Below, one piece after another: positions 31,164-64,000 of a stretch of DNA of 64,000 nucleotides (position 1 is the stretch's first letter; each line of letters begins with the position of its first letter). The position numbers and the translations under genes were made by a program. Source of the stretch: Escherichia virus TH57; the sequence record MT446422.1. One strand, written 5' to 3'. A model generated the notes under the pieces. The model made no database searches. It was given only the letters and a program-made list of their open reading frames with translations, and had not been told where the DNA came from.

Positions 31164-31463
31164 GTGATGTACTACGCATATGTGCTGGTCCACAAAGATA
31201 AAGATGGTTTTGAACACCCATTGGAGTATGATGGAAAGGTGACCTTATACACCACAAAAGCTGGCGCAGATTATGAACTTGCCAACTATTCATATACTAC
31301 AAACCGCTATTTACGCATGGGACGTATTGAAACACGGTATATTCCCAGGAAGTGGTGGTTTGATAAGCGTGAAACAAAAACTGTTTTTCCTACTGAAGAA
31401 CGCGCACGAGAATTGAAATTAGTTTTAGATACTTTATATGTTAAGCGAGTAAAATTGGCATGA
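31164..31463 (+). CDS. hypothetical protein (99 aa)
   Basis: ORF immediately upstream of dda. Confidence 0.4.
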   Translation: MMYYAYVLVHKDKDGFEHPLEYDGKVTLYTTKAGADYELANYSYTTNRYLRMGRIETRYIPRKWWFDKRETKTVFPTEERARELKLVLDTLYVKRVKLA

Positions 31464-32788
31464 TTAAATTTGAAGACTTGAACACAGGACAAAAAGAAGC
31501 TTTTGATTATATCACTGAAGCTATTCAGCGACGTTCAGGGGAATGTATCACTCTGAATGGCCCAGCTGGCACAGGTAAGACCACTCTGACAAAATTTGTC
31601 ATTGACCACTTAGTGCGTAATGGAGTTATGGGAATTGTGCTCGCTGCACCAACTCACCAGGCGAAAAAAGTTTTATCTAAATTGTCTGGTCAAACAGCGA
31701 ATACAATCCATAGTATCCTGAAGATTAACCCGACCACATATGAAGACCAAAACGTTTTTGAACAGCGCGAAATGCCTGACATGTCAAAATGTAATGTTCT
31801 GGTTTGTGATGAAGCAAGTATGTATGACGGGTCTCTGTTTAAGATTATTCTTAACTCTGTTCCCGAATGGTGTACTATTCTTGGGATTGGTGATATGCAC
31901 CAGCTGCAGCCAGTTGACCCAGGAAGCACACAACAAAAGATAAGCCCATTCTTTACGCATCCTAAGTTCAAACAGATTCATCTGACTGAGGTCATGCGAA
32001 GTAATGCTCCTATCATTGAAGTGGCGACAGAAATTCGCAATGGTGGTTGGTTCCGTGACTGCATGTATGAAGGCCATGGCGTGCAAGGTTTCACCTCACA
32101 AACCGCTTTAAAGGATTTCATGATAAACTATTTCAGTATTGTAAAAGATGCTGATATGTTGATGGAAAACAGGATGTATGCATACACGAATAAATCAGTT
32201 GAAAAACTGAACAATATTATTCGTCGCAAGCTATATGAAACGGACAAAGCATTTTTACCGTATGAAGTCCTGGTTATGCAAGAGCCACACATGAAAGAGC
32301 TGGAATTTGAAGGTAAGAAATTCAGCGAAATTATTTTTAACAATGGTCAGTTAGTTCGCATCAAGGATTGCAAATACACTTCCACCATTCTCCGCTGTAA
32401 AGGCGAATCGCACCAGTTAGTGATTAATTACTGGGACCTGGAAGTTGAGTCAATTGATGAAGATGAAGAATATCAGGTTGACCGCATTAAAGTTTTACCA
32501 GAAGACCAGCAACCAAAATTCCAGGCATATCTGGCGAAAGTTGCTGACACATACAAACAGATGAAAGCCGCTGGTAAACGTCCAGAGTGGAAAGACTTCT
32601 GGAAAGCGCGCAGGACCTTCTTGAAAGTTCGTGCTCTTCCGGTCAGTACAATCCATAAGGCACAGGGCGTTTCAGTGGACAAAGCATTCATCTATACTCC
32701 ATGCATCCATATGGCCGAAGCTTCATTAGCGAGCCAGTTGGCTTATGTAGGAATCACACGAGCGAGGTACGACGCATATTATGTATAA
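31460..32788 (+). CDS. dda: DNA helicase Dda (SF1B)
   Basis: 442 aa; Walker A GPAGTGKTT; matches recalled T4 Dda. Confidence 0.92.
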   Translation: MIKFEDLNTGQKEAFDYITEAIQRRSGECITLNGPAGTGKTTLTKFVIDHLVRNGVMGIVLAAPTHQAKKVLSKLSGQTANTIHSILKINPTTYEDQNVFEQREMPDMSKCNVLVCDEASMYDGSLFKIILNSVPEWCTILGIGDMHQLQPVDPGSTQQKISPFFTHPKFKQIHLTEVMRSNAPIIEVATEIRNGGWFRDCMYEGHGVQGFTSQTALKDFMINYFSIVKDADMLMENRMYAYTNKSVEKLNNIIRRKLYETDKAFLPYEVLVMQEPHMKELEFEGKKFSEIIFNNGQLVRIKDCKYTSTILRCKGESHQLVINYWDLEVESIDEDEEYQVDRIKVLPEDQQPKFQAYLAKVADTYKQMKAAGKRPEWKDFWKARRTFLKVRALPVSTIHKAQGVSVDKAFIYTPCIHMAEASLASQLAYVGITRARYDAYYV

Positions 32789-51812: not shown

Positions 51813-52358
51813 TTATTTTTTAAACAATCCTTTGAAGAATGATTTTTTCTCTTTCTCTGGCCAAGCCGGGAATTCACCACCAAGGTGTTCGTGTTTTTCT
51901 AAAAGAGCAAAGAAACGTTTAAGATTCTGGTGATAGAATTTTTCTTTCTTATCGGCGACTGAGGCTTCAACCATATTACTTAATACCTGGAATTCTTTAT
52001 ACAAATCGTCAATTTTTCGATTACGAATTAAAACGCGTTTATAGGTTTCGTCTTCTTTCCAGCCATCGTCGGTCCACACATCAAATTCACCAGGCTCGTC
52101 AAAAGATATACCGACTGGGCTTCCTATGTCATTTATTAAGATTTCTTCTTTATTAAAAGTCCATGCACGTTTGCCTCGATGGTCTTCTTCATAAATCCAA
52201 TCTTGAACGCGTTCATCAAATACAACGGCGAAACCTTCTTTAGGTTCCAATGGTTCCTTTGTGGTTGAGTGAGCCGGGAGACCAAGACCTTTAATGGGTT
52301 TATAATTTTCTTCTTTGTAAAATTCTTTTGTGTCAAAATAAAAATGATAAATTTTCAT
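51813..52358 (-). CDS. 38: gp38, T4-type tail fibre assembly protein
   Basis: Matches recalled T4 gp38 from MKIYH..YFDTKEFYKEENYKP; start taken at ATG 52358. Confidence 0.85.
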   Translation of the reverse strand: MKIYHFYFDTKEFYKEENYKPIKGLGLPAHSTTKEPLEPKEGFAVVFDERVQDWIYEEDHRGKRAWTFNKEEILINDIGSPVGISFDEPGEFDVWTDDGWKEDETYKRVLIRNRKIDDLYKEFQVLSNMVEASVADKKEKFYHQNLKRFFALLEKHEHLGGEFPAWPEKEKKSFFKGLFKK

Positions 52359-52389
52359 ATTCAAAAGGGGCCGAAGCCCCCTCTCCTTA
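52358..52389 (-). promoter_or_regulatory. gene 38 translation initiation region with SD and AUG separated by a hairpin
   Basis: Minus strand reads TAAGGAGAG, GGGGCTTCGGCCCC hairpin, UUUUGAAU, AUG; SD-to-AUG spacing about 22 nt. Confidence 0.55.
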
Positions 52390-55300
52390 TGCTAAACGAA
52401 CGATATAGTTAAAAGCAATGTTTTTAACCGTGTTTTCTGTATTACCTGTACTATTTACAGTGATAGTATGACCGTGCGAACCAATTGCTACCGAGTGGGT
52501 ATGAGCACCAATACCTACAGTATGTGTATGGGCACCAATACCTACAGTATGCGCGTGGTTACCTGTGGTACTTGTGGTTCCTGACCAAGAGTGGGTATGA
52601 GCACCATCATTTGATGTTTTACCAATAGAGCTACTAATACCGATAACACTGGTTGAATTAAATCCAGTCATACCAGACGAGGCAGATACTGAATTAACAC
52701 CGTCTGGAAATAACCCGTTTGGATTATTTCCACTCGAATATCTAGGACCTGAACGAGCGTGCTGGTGAGCACCGGCTGAACTGGTAGTACCACTTACTGT
52801 ATGGTTATGGTTGCCAGTAGTATTACTGGTTTTAGTACCATAGTCAAAACTTGAAGAGGTCTTAGTGCCATAATCAAAGCTTGATGTAGTTTTAGTACCT
52901 AAATCAGTATTAGATGCTGAAGCACTATGGTTATGAGCCTTAACACCATCAGCTTCGGCACTCAACACCGCACGTCCACTTGGTTTACCTTTAATAGTCT
53001 GCCCGCGCATATCCGGAATAGTACCTGTAGGATATGCAACAGCAAGCTTAGGATAAGCACCTGTATCAAAGGTCTGACCTTCCATCAAAGCAAATCCAGC
53101 AGGAACTGAATCACTTGGCCACGGAATCGGAGCGCCAACAGGATAAGGTATCTGAGCATCGGAGTACATCATATACACTTGTCCACGCAGATGACCGGTA
53201 GGTAATTCTGTCACAGGTGTTTGATATCCACCATTAAGTCCAATTACCGAAATATAACGGGTATTTTCCGTGGCGTCATATTCAACTATAAGTTTGTCTG
53301 CATAAGTCCCGGCATACAGATAAACATCATAATCATCACCGGAGGTATTAATTGTTGCTATATTAGTAAATCCATTACCCGTGCGCCCCCATAAGGTAGC
53401 GTTAATACCTTTAGGATTGTCATTACTGGTACGAAGAACTACTTCAGTAATTGTAGCCTGTTCCGGTGAATTTACATTGTATCCATTACCACCTATAATC
53501 TTAAATTGAGCAGTTGATACCGACTGTGGCATAGTTACAGTAGCAAATTTATACCAACCTGCAGTTGAACTACCAGACCAAGTGCCAACATTAACTTTAC
53601 GGTCTAAAGTAGTGTTCAGGTTTTTAAAGTTTTCTAATGCAGTGCTGCCTGTAATATTACCGTCAGGACCAATACGAACATCGGAACCAATTTTAAGTGC
53701 CTTGGTTATATCAACAGTATCAGAGTTTAATGCAATACCATGGGAGTAGGTATAGTTATGTAAACGAACAACGTTGCCGCCGTCGCCGATACCGAGATAC
53801 CATTTTGTAACATCTGCTTTACGACCCTGGATAAAGTTGGATGACGCCTGAGAAGAAGCATTTACCACAATGGCGTCGGAATCCATATTAACACGCAATC
53901 TACAGTCGGTCTGAACAAATTTACTTACGTTGTCTACTGTAAAAAGTGGACCGCCTGTAGAAGTTTTATTACCCATTATAACCGTGCCATTAGCCAAATT
54001 AATGGAAAGCGGGCGAAGGTCGCTTATTCCACCGTTTTCACCGGCATTCTGAAGAGTAGGAATAAGATGGAATGAAGCAGAAGAACCTGTTTCTGAACGA
54101 CGGAAAATCATACCATATTCAGCGTTCCAAATTCTTAATGCATCTGCGGTACCGCCCATTTTAACTTGGCCGTTAATTGAGGCCCCACCTTGGACAAACA
54201 AACCGTTAGACATAGTAACATTGCCACCAAAAGAACCCTTACCTGAAGCGGTAATATCACCAAGACCAACGATATGACCTGTTTCAACAGTTCCATTAAA
54301 CTTAAAGTTGACAGGGCCAACACCATCTGCAACGGCAGGGTTTGTACGTTGGGCATAAAAATAATAACCTTGTGAATCTGAAACTTCCCATACTGTTTCA
54401 CGATTACCTTTTTCGGCGTTAAATGAGTTACCCCATGCCTTAATTGTAACTGTATTTTTGTTCTGGCCATTTCGGGTACCAGCGTCCCAGTTAATTGTTT
54501 TAGTACCATCTACACCGGAAGGAGCTTTAAATGATAATGCATTGGTATTGTCATCACCGTTTAAAAATAAACCAGTACGCATAGAAATGCGATTGGTAGA
54601 GTCAAATGTACCATCTGCTCTAATAGCAACTCTATTGGACCCGGTTTTAACATCTAAAATACCTGGCTCAACAAGAAGCCCGTCGCCCATACTAACAGAC
54701 ATACGACCTTGGCCACGGAAATAGTGATACATCTTTGCATTGCTGCTATAACCGATATGAGTCTGACCATCACCATTATTATTACCGTCGACATCAGTGC
54801 GCGCGGTAAACATTGCCTGATTGCTATTAGGGAAATCCCATGTAGTACCAGAATCACGGCTATAACCAACCATCAATTTCTTAGTGCTGTTAATACCGTT
54901 GTTCAAAACGGTAGCAGATGAAATACCGTTGGCCATCAGGTCATAAACGCCATCACGAACCCATTTAATACCGGTGTCATTATCACCAATTGCAATACCG
55001 ATAGAAATGGCAGAATCTAAAGGATAGCGTCCATTTGTACCATTATCCGGAAGACCTACAGAAATTGATTTACCCGCAGTAATACGTCCGGAGTTATCAA
55101 ACGCCCATTGGAAAGATGAAGGACCCACACCAGTCCACCAAGAAATTTCTTGTGGTTTACCTTTGCGACAATCAGCAATTTCATGGAAAATACTTGATGC
55201 ACTTGATGCACGCAATTTACGCAAATAGTTTAAACCATTAGTAGTATCATCAGAACCATCGGCAGGCGGGTTATAAACCCAAGTAGGTAAAGAAACCCAG

Positions 55301-55947
55301 TCGTATCCTATATTTGCATTAGCTACAAATGATTTTGTACTGAAATTAATATTTTTGGTAACAATTTCAGGACCGGTGATAATACCATTAGCCGAATTTA
55401 TGTTGCCTGATGCAGAAATATTACCTGCTGATACCATTAAACTACCGGTATCAACTTGAAAATTACCATTACGATTAAAGGTCCAATATTTTGAATCACC
55501 AGCTTCATTAATATAGTGGAATTTAAAACTACCTTCCGAAACTAATGTGCCTGCTGAAAATGTTCCATCTTTAAAGCGTTGTTTAATCAGTGGGTTGTAT
55601 TCTGAAGTAGATGCAGCCGCACTTAAATCAGCAAAAATAGGAGCTTTGGCACTGTGCTGGCCTGCCCAAGAGCCACTACCTGTCGTACGATAGTTAAATT
55701 CTATATAACCACCAGAGGCAACAATTTCAGGACCGTTTAAATTCAGGGTCCCGTTAATAGTTACATTTCCATCAACCTGTCCACCCTTTGCAAAGCCTAA
55801 ATCAATAATCTGTCCTTGGTCTGACTTAGTAAAAATGGTACGGTCACGCAAGTTAATAGCCAGTTCACCTTCATCTAACTGGGCTGCAGTAGGCTTGGCT
55901 CCTGCTATTTTACTTCTTTTAAATTGTATCGATTTTAAAGTAGCCAT
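52387..55947 (-). CDS. 37: long tail fibre distal subunit gp37
   Basis: 1186 aa; C-terminal HxH repeats (GNHNH, GAHQH, GAHTH x3, GSHGH) and terminal NYIVRLA as recalled for T4 gp37. Confidence 0.9.
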
Positions 55948-57816: not shown

Positions 57817-60800
57817 TTATGGTGTATCAATCCATTCGAATTTAACGGATTTGGTTACTGGGTCCGGAACAATACGTACATTACCGATTCTTAACCAATC
57901 TCTGATAGTCAGGTTACTCATCGATGCATTATCAGAAGGCAATGCACCGATATCCGAAGGCTGAGGAGGGTTACCACCATCAAATACCTGAACAAAACCT
58001 GACCATGCGTTTTTGTTCTGCTGCCATGTACGAGTCCAGCGAGTAGTGCTTCCATCTGCTGTGTTTGGATAGGTAATCCAATCCTGGTAAAGTGAATTCA
58101 GCGTGTTACCAAACTGGGTCAAAGTACCCGGAGACTTAACTTCTTCACCACGAACCAGATAAGGCAGACCAGTTACTTCGTTGGTCTTTTCAACCATTTT
58201 GAAATAACCTGGGAACTGATTATATGTGGCTGAATCGTTAATGTCGATAGACCAAAAACCTGCATTATCCATTGTAGGTTTTCTGCTATAGATGTCAGAA
58301 GTCTTATCTCCTGTAACCCTTGCATATTTCTGAACAGCTAAGCCGTTGTTAAGTGTAGCTTTGTTGCTTACCGTAAGGAAGTTGTTAATAGTAACAGCGC
58401 CTTCGAATCTAGATTCACTATTAGCAACTAGCCCTGTGGTTGTGATACCAGAAGCTTTAGTAACACTAAGACCGCCGTTAATTATAGCAGACCCATTACC
58501 AAGAACAAAATTACCTGCAGTTATTTCTAAATCACCATTCCGTCTAAAGGTCCATTTGCGCTGGGGTTTTACCGAATCTATATAATGAAGAATAAAAGCA
58601 CCTTCATCATTTGAGGTGGGTTCATTTATCAATGTGCCAAAGGTAAATGTCCCATCTTTATAACGTTGCTTAATTAAAGGAACGTATCTAGATGAGCCAG
58701 ACGGAGTAGTTATATTTAAAAATACAGGAGCTTTAACATTACTATCGTGTTGAGAGTTCCAAGTACCCGAGCCTTGAGATTCTGAAGTGAACTCAATGTA
58801 ATTCAGAGCACCTACTGTAGAATTGCTATTGATTGTAGTAGCACCAGTTAATGTGGTATTATTTGAAGTAACAGAACCACTCAAATTAACTACGCCAGTA
58901 ACTGTCAAAGTACTTTCAATTCTTACAGGCTGTTTAAATGTCATAGTAGCGTTAATATCCTGGGCTACATCACGACGAATAAACTGGGTTGAATCCAGGT
59001 TGTCCAATTTATCAGAGTCTACCGCTTTAGCCAAACGCGGCAGGAAGTTACCAAGGGTTTTGTTTAACTCATACGGAGAGATAGCATAGCTATTTTTCTC
59101 GTACAGGTCAAGAGCCTGAGTAGAACCTGCAGTTGCATTACCGACAAAAGTAATTGCGCCTTCAGACATCTTAGCAAAGCCGCGGGTCGTCGTGGTTGCT
59201 GCCCATGTTGGTTCGGACTGCGCAATCCATTTCAGACTAACAGGAGAAACAGCCAGAACAGAACTTGTTCCTGCGATAGTTTCTGCACGAGTAGCGATGC
59301 GAACAATACCTTCGGTGTCTTCTGTAGCTTTTTTCGACATCAACTTAAGCGGAGTAACGATAGTTTTATCATCAGTACCCGTGTTTACTTCCAACTGAGT
59401 AGCCAGTCTTGCGGTGCCACGTTGAGTCTCATTTGCTTCAAGAATATTCAGCGTATAATGGTCCCAGAGCGTCCCTGTTTCTACTAAACCACTTGCTGCA
59501 ATAACAGAAGTACGAGCAGTATTATTAAATCTAGTTTTAATTTTTAATGGCGTTGCAATACGAGTATCATCTGTACCAGTATCAAATTCTGATTGCGTAG
59601 CAATCTCGGCTATGCCGGATAATGATTCTGTTGCTTTACGGTCATTCAACGTTTTAGGAGTTACAGCTCTGGTATAATCAGTACCGGCATTAGTTTCAAC
59701 CTGAGTTGCAATCTCGATTAAACCGTGGTTTGAATCTGTTGCTCTGCGGGCACCTAATGTTTCAGGAGTCACGACCGAGTTACTGAATCCTATATTTGTT
59801 GCACCAGCGTTAACTTCTGACTGAGTTGCTAGATATACAGCACCTTGGTTATTCTGGTCAGCTTTATATTGGTCTAAAGCTTTAGGAGAAATAACTAAAT
59901 TAGTTGTATTTTTGTTATAAACGTTGGTACCAACAGTTATACGGCTTGCCGCTGGAGTAGTCCCGGTAGTAGGAACATACTTAACGATACCAGATAGGCT
60001 TTCTGAGCCCTGACGAGCTTGTAGCTTACGCGGAGTGATGATGGTAGTATCATCAGTGCCTGCATCAGTTTCTTGTTGTGTGGCGATTTCTGCAAGCCCA
60101 CGTCTTGTTTCTGTGGCTGTACGTTCGTTTAACTTTTTCGGAGAGACGATGATGTCGTCCTGGAAAGCAAAAGTCGTATCCTGATTCACCTGGGCAGTGT
60201 TAGCAATTCGCGCAATACCACGACGTGATTCAGTGGCCACACGGTTAGCTAAAGTCTGCGGGGTAATCGCTAATTCTTTTTCAGGGTTATTTTCATGGTC
60301 AACGTTAGCCTGAGCCTGGTTGGCCAGTGCAATAACACCCAAACGAGCACGAGTCAAATCATCTTTCGAGTCAACACGTTCAACAGTCGGAACGTTCTGA
60401 GCAACAACCCAGTAGTTAATGTTATTATCTGTATCTTCAAGATAACTTAATTCGATAACCGGAGTATAGCTTATATTGCCATTGAAAGTCAGAGAGTCAA
60501 CCAGTACCCATTCAGTATCAGGTGGATATTCCGAACGTTTCGGGAACTGAAGCAGTTGAACAGAAGACGCGATTTTATCAGTAGCCGAAGCTTTAATATT
60601 AACAGTCTGTGCCTTGCGAAGATAGTTCAGAGCAATCTTAACTACGTCCCCAGAACGAACCCCCGTCGGAAGGTCGATGTTAATTGTCTGTGAAGTGTTG
60701 TTATCATTACCAAACACGATGATACTTTCATTTGGCAGCAATTTCACACTGTCACGAATTACGCGCAAGCGAGTTTTATTATCACCGTCCCAGGGTACCC

Positions 60801-61692
60801 ACAGTTTTTCAGTGGCATTATAAACGAAGAAACCATCACCAGTAGTACGGAATTCCATACTGTGCTGGCCCTGTTTACCCAGAGAGCTTGACTCGTCAAA
60901 CGTTTCAACATCCAGGTGGTATAATGGCCCTAATCCATCTATATCTACTGATTTGACAATATCGCCTTGGTTAGCATACTTAGGAAGAATAAATGTAATT
61001 TTTTCTGCAGTCGTATAATGACGCATAATAAAATCTGATGCTTGAGTTCGATATTTACCAGAGCTTGGTTCAATTCTTATTCCGCGTTCTTCGTTACCTG
61101 CTTCCCAGAACTGCCATAAACGGTTAGAGAAAATAAGCATATTATAAGAGAACGGCTTACTGATTAATACTTCAGTAAATTGGTTACCGAAACGGACAAT
61201 CTTTTGGTTACCTTGACCAGGCACATTGCTCGATTGAACTTTGATTTCATTATAACCGGTATTACCGCCGATATCTTTAATAACGATGGTATCACCATCA
61301 GTCGGGTTCGGAGGCAATGTAAATGTGGTAAAGCTTGCAGCTGAGTCGACTGCGATAAATTCCCCGGAGCGAAGCTGACGAGTTGGTGATGCAACAGTTT
61401 CCCATTTCGGGTCAGTACGGGTTGCGGTCCAATATTGCTGAACAAACGGGCCAGCTGGTTCTGCGATTTCACGTTGGGAAACCCAAATACGGTTATCATA
61501 GATAACTGCAAAATCTTTCTTATATCCGCGTGTTGCATCATATTGTTGAATTGTGTTTTCTTCTATAAAGAAGTCTACGTTTACGCCGTCTGACAAAACT
61601 GAGAAATCAGCTTTCGCGACATTAATGACTTTCTCACCAGCAGCATCGAGACCGGATGTTGCTCTGAATGCTGGTTTTAAAATATCGGCCAT
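57817..61692 (-). CDS. 34: long tail fibre proximal subunit gp34
   Basis: 1291 aa; internal ...ATQxExxxGTDDT..xTP.KL repeat series; late promoter upstream. Confidence 0.9.
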   Translation of the reverse strand: MADILKPAFRATSGLDAAGEKVINVAKADFSVLSDGVNVDFFIEENTIQQYDATRGYKKDFAVIYDNRIWVSQREIAEPAGPFVQQYWTATRTDPKWETVASPTRQLRSGEFIAVDSAASFTTFTLPPNPTDGDTIVIKDIGGNTGYNEIKVQSSNVPGQGNQKIVRFGNQFTEVLISKPFSYNMLIFSNRLWQFWEAGNEERGIRIEPSSGKYRTQASDFIMRHYTTAEKITFILPKYANQGDIVKSVDIDGLGPLYHLDVETFDESSSLGKQGQHSMEFRTTGDGFFVYNATEKLWVPWDGDNKTRLRVIRDSVKLLPNESIIVFGNDNNTSQTINIDLPTGVRSGDVVKIALNYLRKAQTVNIKASATDKIASSVQLLQFPKRSEYPPDTEWVLVDSLTFNGNISYTPVIELSYLEDTDNNINYWVVAQNVPTVERVDSKDDLTRARLGVIALANQAQANVDHENNPEKELAITPQTLANRVATESRRGIARIANTAQVNQDTTFAFQDDIIVSPKKLNERTATETRRGLAEIATQQETDAGTDDTTIITPRKLQARQGSESLSGIVKYVPTTGTTPAASRITVGTNVYNKNTTNLVISPKALDQYKADQNNQGAVYLATQSEVNAGATNIGFSNSVVTPETLGARRATDSNHGLIEIATQVETNAGTDYTRAVTPKTLNDRKATESLSGIAEIATQSEFDTGTDDTRIATPLKIKTRFNNTARTSVIAASGLVETGTLWDHYTLNILEANETQRGTARLATQLEVNTGTDDKTIVTPLKLMSKKATEDTEGIVRIATRAETIAGTSSVLAVSPVSLKWIAQSEPTWAATTTTRGFAKMSEGAITFVGNATAGSTQALDLYEKNSYAISPYELNKTLGNFLPRLAKAVDSDKLDNLDSTQFIRRDVAQDINATMTFKQPVRIESTLTVTGVVNLSGSVTSNNTTLTGATTINSNSTVGALNYIEFTSESQGSGTWNSQHDSNVKAPVFLNITTPSGSSRYVPLIKQRYKDGTFTFGTLINEPTSNDEGAFILHYIDSVKPQRKWTFRRNGDLEITAGNFVLGNGSAIINGGLSVTKASGITTTGLVANSESRFEGAVTINNFLTVSNKATLNNGLAVQKYARVTGDKTSDIYSRKPTMDNAGFWSIDINDSATYNQFPGYFKMVEKTNEVTGLPYLVRGEEVKSPGTLTQFGNTLNSLYQDWITYPNTADGSTTRWTRTWQQNKNAWSGFVQVFDGGNPPQPSDIGALPSDNASMSNLTIRDWLRIGNVRIVPDPVTKSVKFEWIDTP

Positions 61693-61787: not shown

Positions 61788-62732
61788 ATGAATTTAGATT
61801 TTTTACTCCCTGAAGAAGACCGTCAAAAAGATGGTTTTCTGTTACTCGATTTTAGCCAGCTTATCATGGCAGCAGCCTTCCAGGAATTCGGTAAAGACGC
61901 AGGCTTCCCTAAGGTGACAACCGCAATGACCAGACATCTGGTTCTGAACTCTATCAGAAAAAACATTGTACAGTTTAAAAAGCTCGGTTATACAATCCCA
62001 ATTATTTGTGTTGATAATTCAAAGAATGGTTATTGGCGCCGCACGAAATCTTATTATTATAAGAAAAACCGTGCAAAAGCCCGTGAAGAGTCACAATTTG
62101 ATTGGGAAGGCCTACATGCTGCCATGCACATCATCATTGATGAAATGGAAAAACACATGCCTTACATCGTGATGAATATGGATAAAATTGAGGCTGATGA
62201 CCATATTGCGGTATTAACGAAGTTGCTCACCGGTCTCGGGCATCCGGTTATGATTGTTTCTTCGGATGGTGACTTTACCCAGCTGCATAAATTCCCTGGG
62301 GTAAAACAATGGTCTCCGATGCAGAAAAAATATGTCAAAACCAAATCAGGCGATGCCCTTATGGATTGCGTGACCAAGGTTGTTAAAGGTGACAAAAAAG
62401 ATAACGTGTCGAGCATCAAAGTTCGTGGTGATTTTTATTACACTCATGAAGAAGGTGAACGTACTCCACCGACCCGCGCAGCTGAACTTGAACAAATTGC
62501 ACTCAACTATTACGACCATGACGTTTTGAAAACGCTTTTAACAGAAGAGCAATATAATAGATTCTGTGAAAACCAATTGTTGATTGATATGGACTTTATT
62601 CCAACGGAAATATCCGCTTCAATCTTAGAACGATATAATAACTACACTATCCCAGCCAAAAGTAAAGTTTATCCTTACTTTGTTAAGTCTGGTCTGTCTA
62701 AACTAACTGCAAATATTGCTGAATTTTATTAA
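61788..62732 (+). CDS. rnh: RNase H (FEN-1 family 5'-3' exonuclease)
   Basis: 314 aa; motifs GYWRR..YYKKNR.KAREES.WDWEG and SSDGDFTQLHK as recalled for T4 RNase H. Confidence 0.9.
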   Translation: MNLDFLLPEEDRQKDGFLLLDFSQLIMAAAFQEFGKDAGFPKVTTAMTRHLVLNSIRKNIVQFKKLGYTIPIICVDNSKNGYWRRTKSYYYKKNRAKAREESQFDWEGLHAAMHIIIDEMEKHMPYIVMNMDKIEADDHIAVLTKLLTGLGHPVMIVSSDGDFTQLHKFPGVKQWSPMQKKYVKTKSGDALMDCVTKVVKGDKKDNVSSIKVRGDFYYTHEEGERTPPTRAAELEQIALNYYDHDVLKTLLTEEQYNRFCENQLLIDMDFIPTEISASILERYNNYTIPAKSKVYPYFVKSGLSKLTANIAEFY

Positions 62733-62740
62733 GGTATATT

Positions 62741-63010
62741 ATGAAAGAGAAAAAAGTGAAAGTTGAATTTTGTCCTGATACTCATGGCGCTGAACTGGCC
62801 AAGCTGATTAAAGCTGCTTCCGATACCAAATTAAAAATGGAAGCATATGCAGACGAAATTAAAGACCTTAAAGATAAGGCAAAAACTGAATTAGGCGTTG
62901 ACGGTAAGATGTTCAATACACAGCTCGGCCTGTATCATAAAGGCACTCGTGAACGTTTTGAAGATGAAAAAACCGAAGCTGTGGAGCTCTATGATGTCCT
63001 CTTTAGTTAA
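62741..63010 (+). CDS. dsbA: dsDNA-binding protein DsbA
   Basis: 89 aa; KVEFCPDTHG N-terminus; position between rnh and 33. Confidence 0.75.
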   Translation: MKEKKVKVEFCPDTHGAELAKLIKAASDTKLKMEAYADEIKDLKDKAKTELGVDGKMFNTQLGLYHKGTRERFEDEKTEAVELYDVLFS

Positions 63011-63284
63011 TTTCGATACACAGAAAACTGAATCGCCTTCCGGGGCGATTAGTAAGCAGCAAAACGGGCTTGATATTGAAGCCATGGTTGAGTCAACTGA
63101 AATGTCTTATCTGGAAGCTGCGACTGCCTGGTTGGAAGAACGTGGAATTCCTGAAGGTAATTTTGCGCGATACATTCCTGCGGGAATCATTGATAAGATT
63201 ATGAACGAAGCCTATGATGATAACCTGCTTCGTCCGAGTATGTCTCGTACACAGAAAACTAATACGCTGGACTTTTTGTTATGA
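62991..63284 (+). CDS. 33: late transcription co-activator gp33
   Basis: C-terminus LLRPS..R..KTNTLDFLL and MSYLEA motif as recalled for T4 gp33; start at ATG 62991 (GGAG RBS) overlapping dsbA end. Confidence 0.8.
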   Translation: MMSSLVNFDTQKTESPSGAISKQQNGLDIEAMVESTEMSYLEAATAWLEERGIPEGNFARYIPAGIIDKIMNEAYDDNLLRPSMSRTQKTNTLDFLL

Positions 63285-63948
63285 TTACGATTCGCATGCC
63301 TCCAAATAACAACCGATACATAAATGGTAAATCAGTATATCAACTGTACTTATCCATCAAACAGCATTTTTCGGGTCGTTATGATATTATCAAATATAAC
63401 TGGACCATGCGAATCTCCGATAGTGCTTATCAAAAACGTCGTGATAAGTATTTTTTCGAAAAGCTTAGTGATAAGTACACTCTCAAAGAATTAACGTTAA
63501 TATTCATGTCAAACCTGGTCGCGAACCAGGATGCATGGATAGGCGATATAAGTGATGCCGATGCTCTGATATTTTATAGGGAATACATCGGCAGACTTAA
63601 AAGAATTAGACAAGTATACGAAGATGATATAAAGAATATCTATTACTTCAGTAAGAAAGTCGAAGTCAAATCGCTTCAAGAGATTTTCGAGATAATACTA
63701 AAGTGAATACAAGTTATATTTTCAAACTTCTCCAATCGAATGTTATCTCATTTGAAACGTTTTGTTTGCTTGATTCATTTTTAGATATTATAAATAAACA
63801 TGATGAACAGACTAACGACTTGGTTTGGGAAAAGTATTCAACCAAACTAAATGCCTATAAGAAAATCTTAAATATCGATTCTCTTGAAGCTCGTAAATTG
63901 TTCATCGAGACCGTTAAAAACTGTCAAATAACGCTTCAAGCACTTTGA
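63281..63948 (+). CDS. 59: helicase loader gp59, interrupted by an apparent frameshift (ORFs 63281-63706 and 63703-63948)
   Basis: N-terminal part (GKSVYQLYL..KQH..G.YD.IKYNW) and C-terminal part (SYIFKLLQSN.ISFETF) lie in different frames; restoring one A near 63692-63695 gives EINTKVNTSYIF, matching recalled T4 EYNPKVQSSYIF. Confidence 0.75.
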
Positions 63949-64000
63949 AGTATAATTAATACGTAATCAAAACAACTGCTAAAAATCAAATAATCTAAGG

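Follow-up and report, generated by a model that had tools for sequence, protein, structure and literature searches.

A single missing base divides helicase-loader gene 59 between two frames in the sequence of a Gaprivervirus-type T4-like phage, most likely for technical reasons

In phage T4, mutants of gene 59 show some of the strongest DNA-arrest phenotypes described, and gp59 is regarded as essential (review PMC3016281). The same review records that gp41 is loaded slowly without gp59 and that early DNA synthesis persists, that dda 59 double mutants fare worse, and that the DNA arrest is suppressed when UvsW is lost (PMC3016281). A second body of work concerns the tetramer A_AAG, at which frameshifting in E. 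coli reaches 5.6% when a strong pseudoknot is present (PMC4066793).

The locus described here lies at the end of a 64,000-nucleotide stretch of DNA (the window) from a Gaprivervirus-type T4-like phage. Its gene 59 is an ordinary, highly conserved gene for the loader of the gp41 replicative helicase, in its known place. The locus shares with T4 the two-domain Pfam architecture of gp59, the gene order rnh-dsbA-33-59 and the ATGA overlap between genes 33 and 59. It differs from T4 in encoding the 222-codon form with a QITLQAL tail, where T4 gp59 has 217 residues, in lacking segG after gene 59, and in having gene 59 in two frames. The Gaprivervirus genes for gp59 in vB_YenM_P8, TH40, TH54, EAWsc9, VR20, VR25, VR26 and SP18 all keep the T that is missing here and all form a single ORF (654 nt in SP18, where segG comes next, and 669 nt in the other relatives), whereas that of the window is split. 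The features of the region are as follows.

57817-61692, minus strand: gene 34, placed as in the T4 gene order
61788-62732: rnh, in the order of T4, within the last 2.2 kb of the window
62741-63010: dsbA, in T4 gene order, within the last 2.2 kb of the window
62991-63284, plus strand: gene 33, late-transcription co-activator (Pfam Trans_coact, E = 3.8e-26)
63281-63706, plus strand: 5' part of gene 59, with an ATG start, 141 codons and a TGA stop at 63704-63706
63703-63948, plus strand: 3' part of gene 59, 81 codons corresponding to native codons 142-222, in the -1 frame

Gene 33 occupies the position of the annotated gp33 CDS in relatives, and its stop overlaps the start of gene 59 (63281) in the sequence ATGA. 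As recorded, gene 59 then runs in two frames and not as one continuous ORF. The ORF at 63281-63706 consists of native codons 1-137 followed by the out-of-frame residues I-I-L-K and TGA; residues 1-137 of EAWsc9 gp59 align to 63281-63691 at 99.3% identity (tblastn). The earliest possible start of the 3' ORF is the GTG at 63703, and the two ORFs overlap by 4 nt, GTGA. HMM comparison with Pfam divides the protein in the same way: the full T4_Gp59_N profile (PF08993, 1-93/93) is found in 63281-63706 with E = 6e-49, positions 1-24 of T4_Gp59_C (PF08994) follow in that same ORF at 21.7 bits, which alone is below the cut-off, and positions 33-108/109 of T4_Gp59_C lie in the second ORF with E = 6.9e-29. 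The break therefore falls inside the C-terminal domain, between profile positions 24 and 33 of 109, so that most of this domain is absent from the 141-aa product. An earlier note on this DNA had described a clear homolog of gp59 that a single-base frameshift divides, with the junction at 63703-63706 and the parts being ORFs of 141 and 81 codons in different frames. Both ORFs are indeed present, the second at -1 relative to the first, with the Pfam N- and C-terminal domains divided between them and the alignment one base short; the two-frame observation is real and far beyond chance. The window ends 52 nt past gene 59, and in relatives gene 32 begins ~60 nt past gene 59.

The lesion itself could be placed exactly.

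between 63691 and 63692, plus strand: missing T, the window being exactly one base short in alignment with four relatives

Indel scans against TH54 and against EAWsc9 each find the window one nucleotide short after 63691: relatives have GAG TAT AAT ACT AAA GTG/GTA AAC here, against GAG-ATA ATA CTA AAG TGA in the window. The Tyr138 codon begins with the lost T, the context of which, GAG[T]ATA, is no homopolymer. The remedy offered in the earlier note, an A added to a run near 63692-63695, has to be replaced: the bases there are ATAA, with no A run, relatives have T after 63691, and repair with T gives EYNTKV rather than the proposed peptide EINTKV. With the T restored, the gene encodes a 222-residue protein (...EIFEYNTKVNTSYIF; T4 counterpart EIFEYNPKVQSSYIF) that aligns to T4 gp59 (PDB 1C1K) over residues 1-216 with E = 3.1e-107. 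Compared with gp59 of P8, TH40, TH54 and EAWsc9, the sole difference of the repaired protein is K110R, an AAA to AGA change at 63609 in codon 110. Among the relatives examined this substitution is common only to vB_EcoM_VR20, whose gene 59 is intact despite it, and a search of metagenome contigs for the K110R codon returned no match.

How widespread the deletion is was assessed at the DNA and at the protein level. Positions 63250-64000 (751 nt) show 96-98.5% DNA identity to 33 phage records, including TH40, vB_YenM_P8, TH44, P896, VR20, VR25, VR26 and SP18, none of which is identical; the best match in the collections searched reaches 98.5% in the gene 59 region and 97.6% over the first 25 kb. 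When an 81-nt probe across the site was used, every one of the 28 matched phage records spanned 82 nt, that is, kept the base, and gene 59 of annotated relatives is a single 669-nt CDS. An exact pattern search of viral, metagenome and genome contig collections found no deleted version, with the intact pattern, as a positive control, being found in VR20, VR25 and VR26, and an exact-product look-up found neither of the two gene 59 ORF products on record. Judged by these comparisons, the two-frame arrangement is private to the window sequence, which excludes an evolved, conserved recoding signal.

The DNA downstream of the lesion bears on its age. Over the 81 codons 3' of the deletion, the protein is 100% identical to those of P8, TH40, TH54 and EAWsc9, the four nearest of six relatives compared, and the 2-4 nucleotide differences that separate the window from these four are all synonymous. 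The open downstream frame with only synonymous differences indicates that this frame was under purifying selection until essentially the present, so that the lesion must be an artefact or have arisen very recently. A decaying pseudogene was rejected, as the 81 downstream codons are open and encode the same amino acids as in the four nearest relatives.

For the quality of the rest of the assembly, the whole window was aligned with TH54 and EAWsc9, and all indels of a length not divisible by three were listed. Five of these are isolated, after 8240, 34821, 43774, 52376 and 63691, and the remaining non-triplet indels cluster in divergent tail-fibre and small-ORF regions. According to the EAWsc9 annotation and ORF maps, those after 8240, 34821, 43774 and 52376 are all intergenic. 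At the protein level, the window gave a single HSP with at least 90% coverage for 107 of 113 syntenic EAWsc9 CDS, five had diverged or were missing (gp37, gp38 and small ORFs), and gene 59 was the only one of the 113 split between frames. Neither the indel scans nor the protein-level check found further frameshifts in coding DNA of the window. The absence of any other split gene, together with the absence at the site of a homopolymer, the context in which indel errors of sequencing platforms tend to cluster, weakens a sequencing error as the explanation without removing it. Separately, three of the four intergenic 1-nt differences fall in short homopolymer runs (T5/T6, A3/A2, C5/C4). A placement of the indel after 52376 inside an ORF was considered and rejected; it sits in the gp37-gp38 intergenic hairpin, within GGGGGCTTCGGCCCC, which is followed by TTTT.

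The same alignments showed the distal tail-fibre module (51813-55947) to be divergent. Its gp37 (52387-55947, 1186 aa) is ~33% identical to EAWsc9 gp37, and the EAWsc9 gp38-like CDS has no match in the window; a gp37 similar to that of the window (1206 aa) is present in TH54, along with the same downstream ORF of 183 aa. Such tail-fibre divergence looks like host-range module exchange.

We rate it at somewhat better than an even chance that the deletion is not a property of a viable phage, arising instead as a base-calling or assembly error or as a minority variant in the consensus. The phage would then make a normal 222-residue gp59 (...EIFEYNTKVNTSYIF...), and the missing T would be a mistake in base calling or assembly, or would stem from a minority variant that entered the consensus. 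That the cause is most likely technical rather than biological is what we infer, whereas the identity of the gene, the missing base, its uniqueness and the preserved frame are direct observations. The lesion is unique to the window record and the surrounding codons look fully functional, both of which favour an error; the site offers no error-prone context and the assembly contains no other frameshifted gene, both of which count against one. An artefact nevertheless ranks first because a null allele is unlikely, on prior grounds, to make up most of a propagated lysate, gp59 being essential in T4. The locus shows a known kind of defect and gives no sign of a new system or mechanism.

The strongest rival, which we consider possible though clearly less probable, is that a real and very recent one-base deletion was present in the sequenced stock, making gene 59 null or strongly hypomorphic. 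Such an allele might be tolerated through redundancy, with slow self-loading of gp41 and the Dda helicase as proposed sources, or through a suppressor, for example in uvsW (dar); uvsW is located outside the window. The otherwise unframeshifted assembly and the lack of a homopolymer at the site are what a genuine mutation would look like, and dda is intact (31460-32788, 442 aa). Work on T4 gives this rival further room, since gp41 loads without gp59 in vitro, gene 59 mutants keep early DNA synthesis and inactivation of UvsW suppresses the DNA arrest, but the same review terms gp59 essential (PMC3016281). The lesion is moreover found in no relative, and the downstream frame is without decay, so the mutation could be at most a few passages old.

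A further elaboration, which we regard as improbable, holds that a real deletion is partly rescued in translation at a site just downstream of it.

63700-63706, plus strand: A_AAG tetramer followed by the 0-frame stop TGA, with the GTG/TGA overlap GTGA

If the deletion is real, no other stretch is a plausible candidate for -1 slippage or reinitiation of an incidental kind. Here the 0 frame ends CTA AAG TGA and the -1 frame continues GTG AAT ACA. Along one route, itself a doubtful one, tRNA-Lys on AAG (63701-63703), with UGA in the A site, would slip by -1 onto AAA and translation would continue at GUG; the hypothetical product of this unlikely event would be a full-length 222-aa gp59 with YNT replaced by IIL at residues 138-140 (junction peptide EIFEIILKVNTSYIFK), equal in length to the wild type. 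Along the other, for which we would give similarly little credence, termination at UGA and reinitiation at the overlapping GUG would yield two fragments that might associate; no good Shine-Dalgarno sequence precedes the GTG, however, where there is only GAG 11 nt upstream, and the split falls inside the C-terminal domain.

In favour of slippage, no tetramer shifts more readily in E. coli than A_AAG (PMC4066793), and a newly created A_AAG reportedly compensated a nearby -1 mutation, a 'savior indel plus low-level frameshifting' being a known situation (PMC5009743). The A_AAG-rescued leaky -1 mutants of that work (Atkins et al. 2016, PMC5009743) likewise have a -1 lesion a few codons upstream of an A_AAG in the mutant frame; the window differs from them in that its tetramer is also adjacent to a stop and lacks a stimulatory element, and in that its deletion may not be real. 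Tetramers without a stimulator barely exceed background, however, at 0.147% versus 0.112% (PMC4066793), and any fold downstream of this one is weak and misplaced. The best fold of 63704-63790 has a minimum free energy of -13.9 kcal/mol (z = -2.15) and forms a long-range stem from the stop codon with large loops, not a compact hairpin 5-9 nt downstream; no convincing frameshift stimulator downstream of A_AAG was found in it. Reading of the sequence upstream of the site found no GGAGG-like (Shine-Dalgarno-like) element. Because no relative has the arrangement, it would be accidental and not selected, and any rescue is probably incidental and well below 1-2%.

That gene 59 is expressed through transcriptional slippage or an evolved, programmed -1 ribosomal frameshift has a negligible chance of being right and is effectively refuted: two overlapping frames with an A_AAG tetramer suggest it, and against it the two-frame arrangement occurs in 0 of 28 matched records, gp59 is in one frame in every relative and annotated there as a single ORF, and the site is without a heptamer, a slippage run or a convincing structure. 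The overlap contains no X_XXY_YYZ heptamer, the only tetramers being T_TTC (63685-63688) and A_AAG (63700-63703), and the A and T runs at the site, none longer than TTTT, are too short for transcriptional slippage. The earlier note had offered a sequencing error, a true mutation and an expression-level frameshift as its three options; that set was well chosen, except that the last, in its evolved form, is excluded by relatives that have one 222-codon ORF.

The missing base also falls within a promoter-like motif. The MotA box, wwwTGCTTtA, precedes a good -10 element, TAtaaT, by 12 +/- 1 bp (PMC2988021). We searched with the strict pattern GCTTYA-N(11-13)-TATAAT, which combines the MotA-box core with a perfect -10, taking the expectation from shuffles, and obtained 6 matches in the window, all on the plus strand, against 0.09 expected, a ~60-fold enrichment. 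The gene 59 region contains one intact match and one remnant.

63673-63696, plus strand: GCTTCA-N12-GATAAT, motif remnant; relatives have GCTTCA-N13-TATAAT
63933-63956, plus strand: GCTTCA-N12-TATAAT, intact, at the end of gene 59 and upstream of gene 32

In relatives, the site corresponding to 63673-63696 reads aatCGCTTCA-N13-TATAAT, the TATAAT of which begins with the missing T. The strict pattern matches P8 at one additional place, GCTTCAAGAGATTTTCGAGTATAAT, and in relative L001 (724-748) it matches the counterpart of window 63673-63696. From its sequence, the site in relatives is likely an internal MotA-dependent middle promoter within gene 59, directed toward gene 32. In T4 the site, at codons 130-139, has a 14-nt spacer and is absent from the published list of T4 middle promoters. 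A sigma-70 -35/-10 scan, which does not cover MotA-type promoters, gave no hit at this site, whether in the window or in a relative. The motif favours neither error nor mutation.

Several further observations concern these motifs. The six strict matches, at 11584, 26006, 36475, 59435, 62616 and 63933 (all +), are candidate middle promoters; that at 59435 is antisense inside gene 34, where T4 has P34i, and that at 62616 lies before dsbA, where T4 has PdsbA. An identification of the internal motif with T4 PsegG was rejected, since PsegG (start site 148678) maps to codons ~160-172. At 63765-63791, in gene 59 codons ~162-171, the window carries TTTGCTTGA-N12-TATTAT, a counterpart of T4 PsegG (TGCTTGA-N12-TATAAT), though the window phage is without segG. 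The remaining 63949-64000 of the window contain no homing endonuclease gene after gene 59. Such a gene follows gene 59 in SP18, vB_EcoM_RZ, DK-13, UPEC07 and T4 (segG), as well as in VR7 (annotated 32.1); in SP18 (L012, 1082-1720) it overlaps the end of gene 59, the product of which has 217 and not 222 residues.

For annotation, two hypothetical proteins would be the wrong description; gene 59 is better labelled here as frameshifted, probably through error, or as disrupted. Should the deletion be real, the probable internal middle promoter would lose strength as well; its transcripts would begin close to 63703 and extend into gene 32. It would take a long shot for all of this to come together, namely a viable phage that has the real deletion, expresses an essential replication gene through 'shifty stop' slippage or GTGA reinitiation and also has a weakened MotA-type promoter. 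A real deletion would be of modest interest for the T4 replication and recoding fields and, if it proved real in a stock that forms plaques, would give a minor example from nature of a phage that lives with damage to a gene considered essential in T4, or makes up for it in translation.
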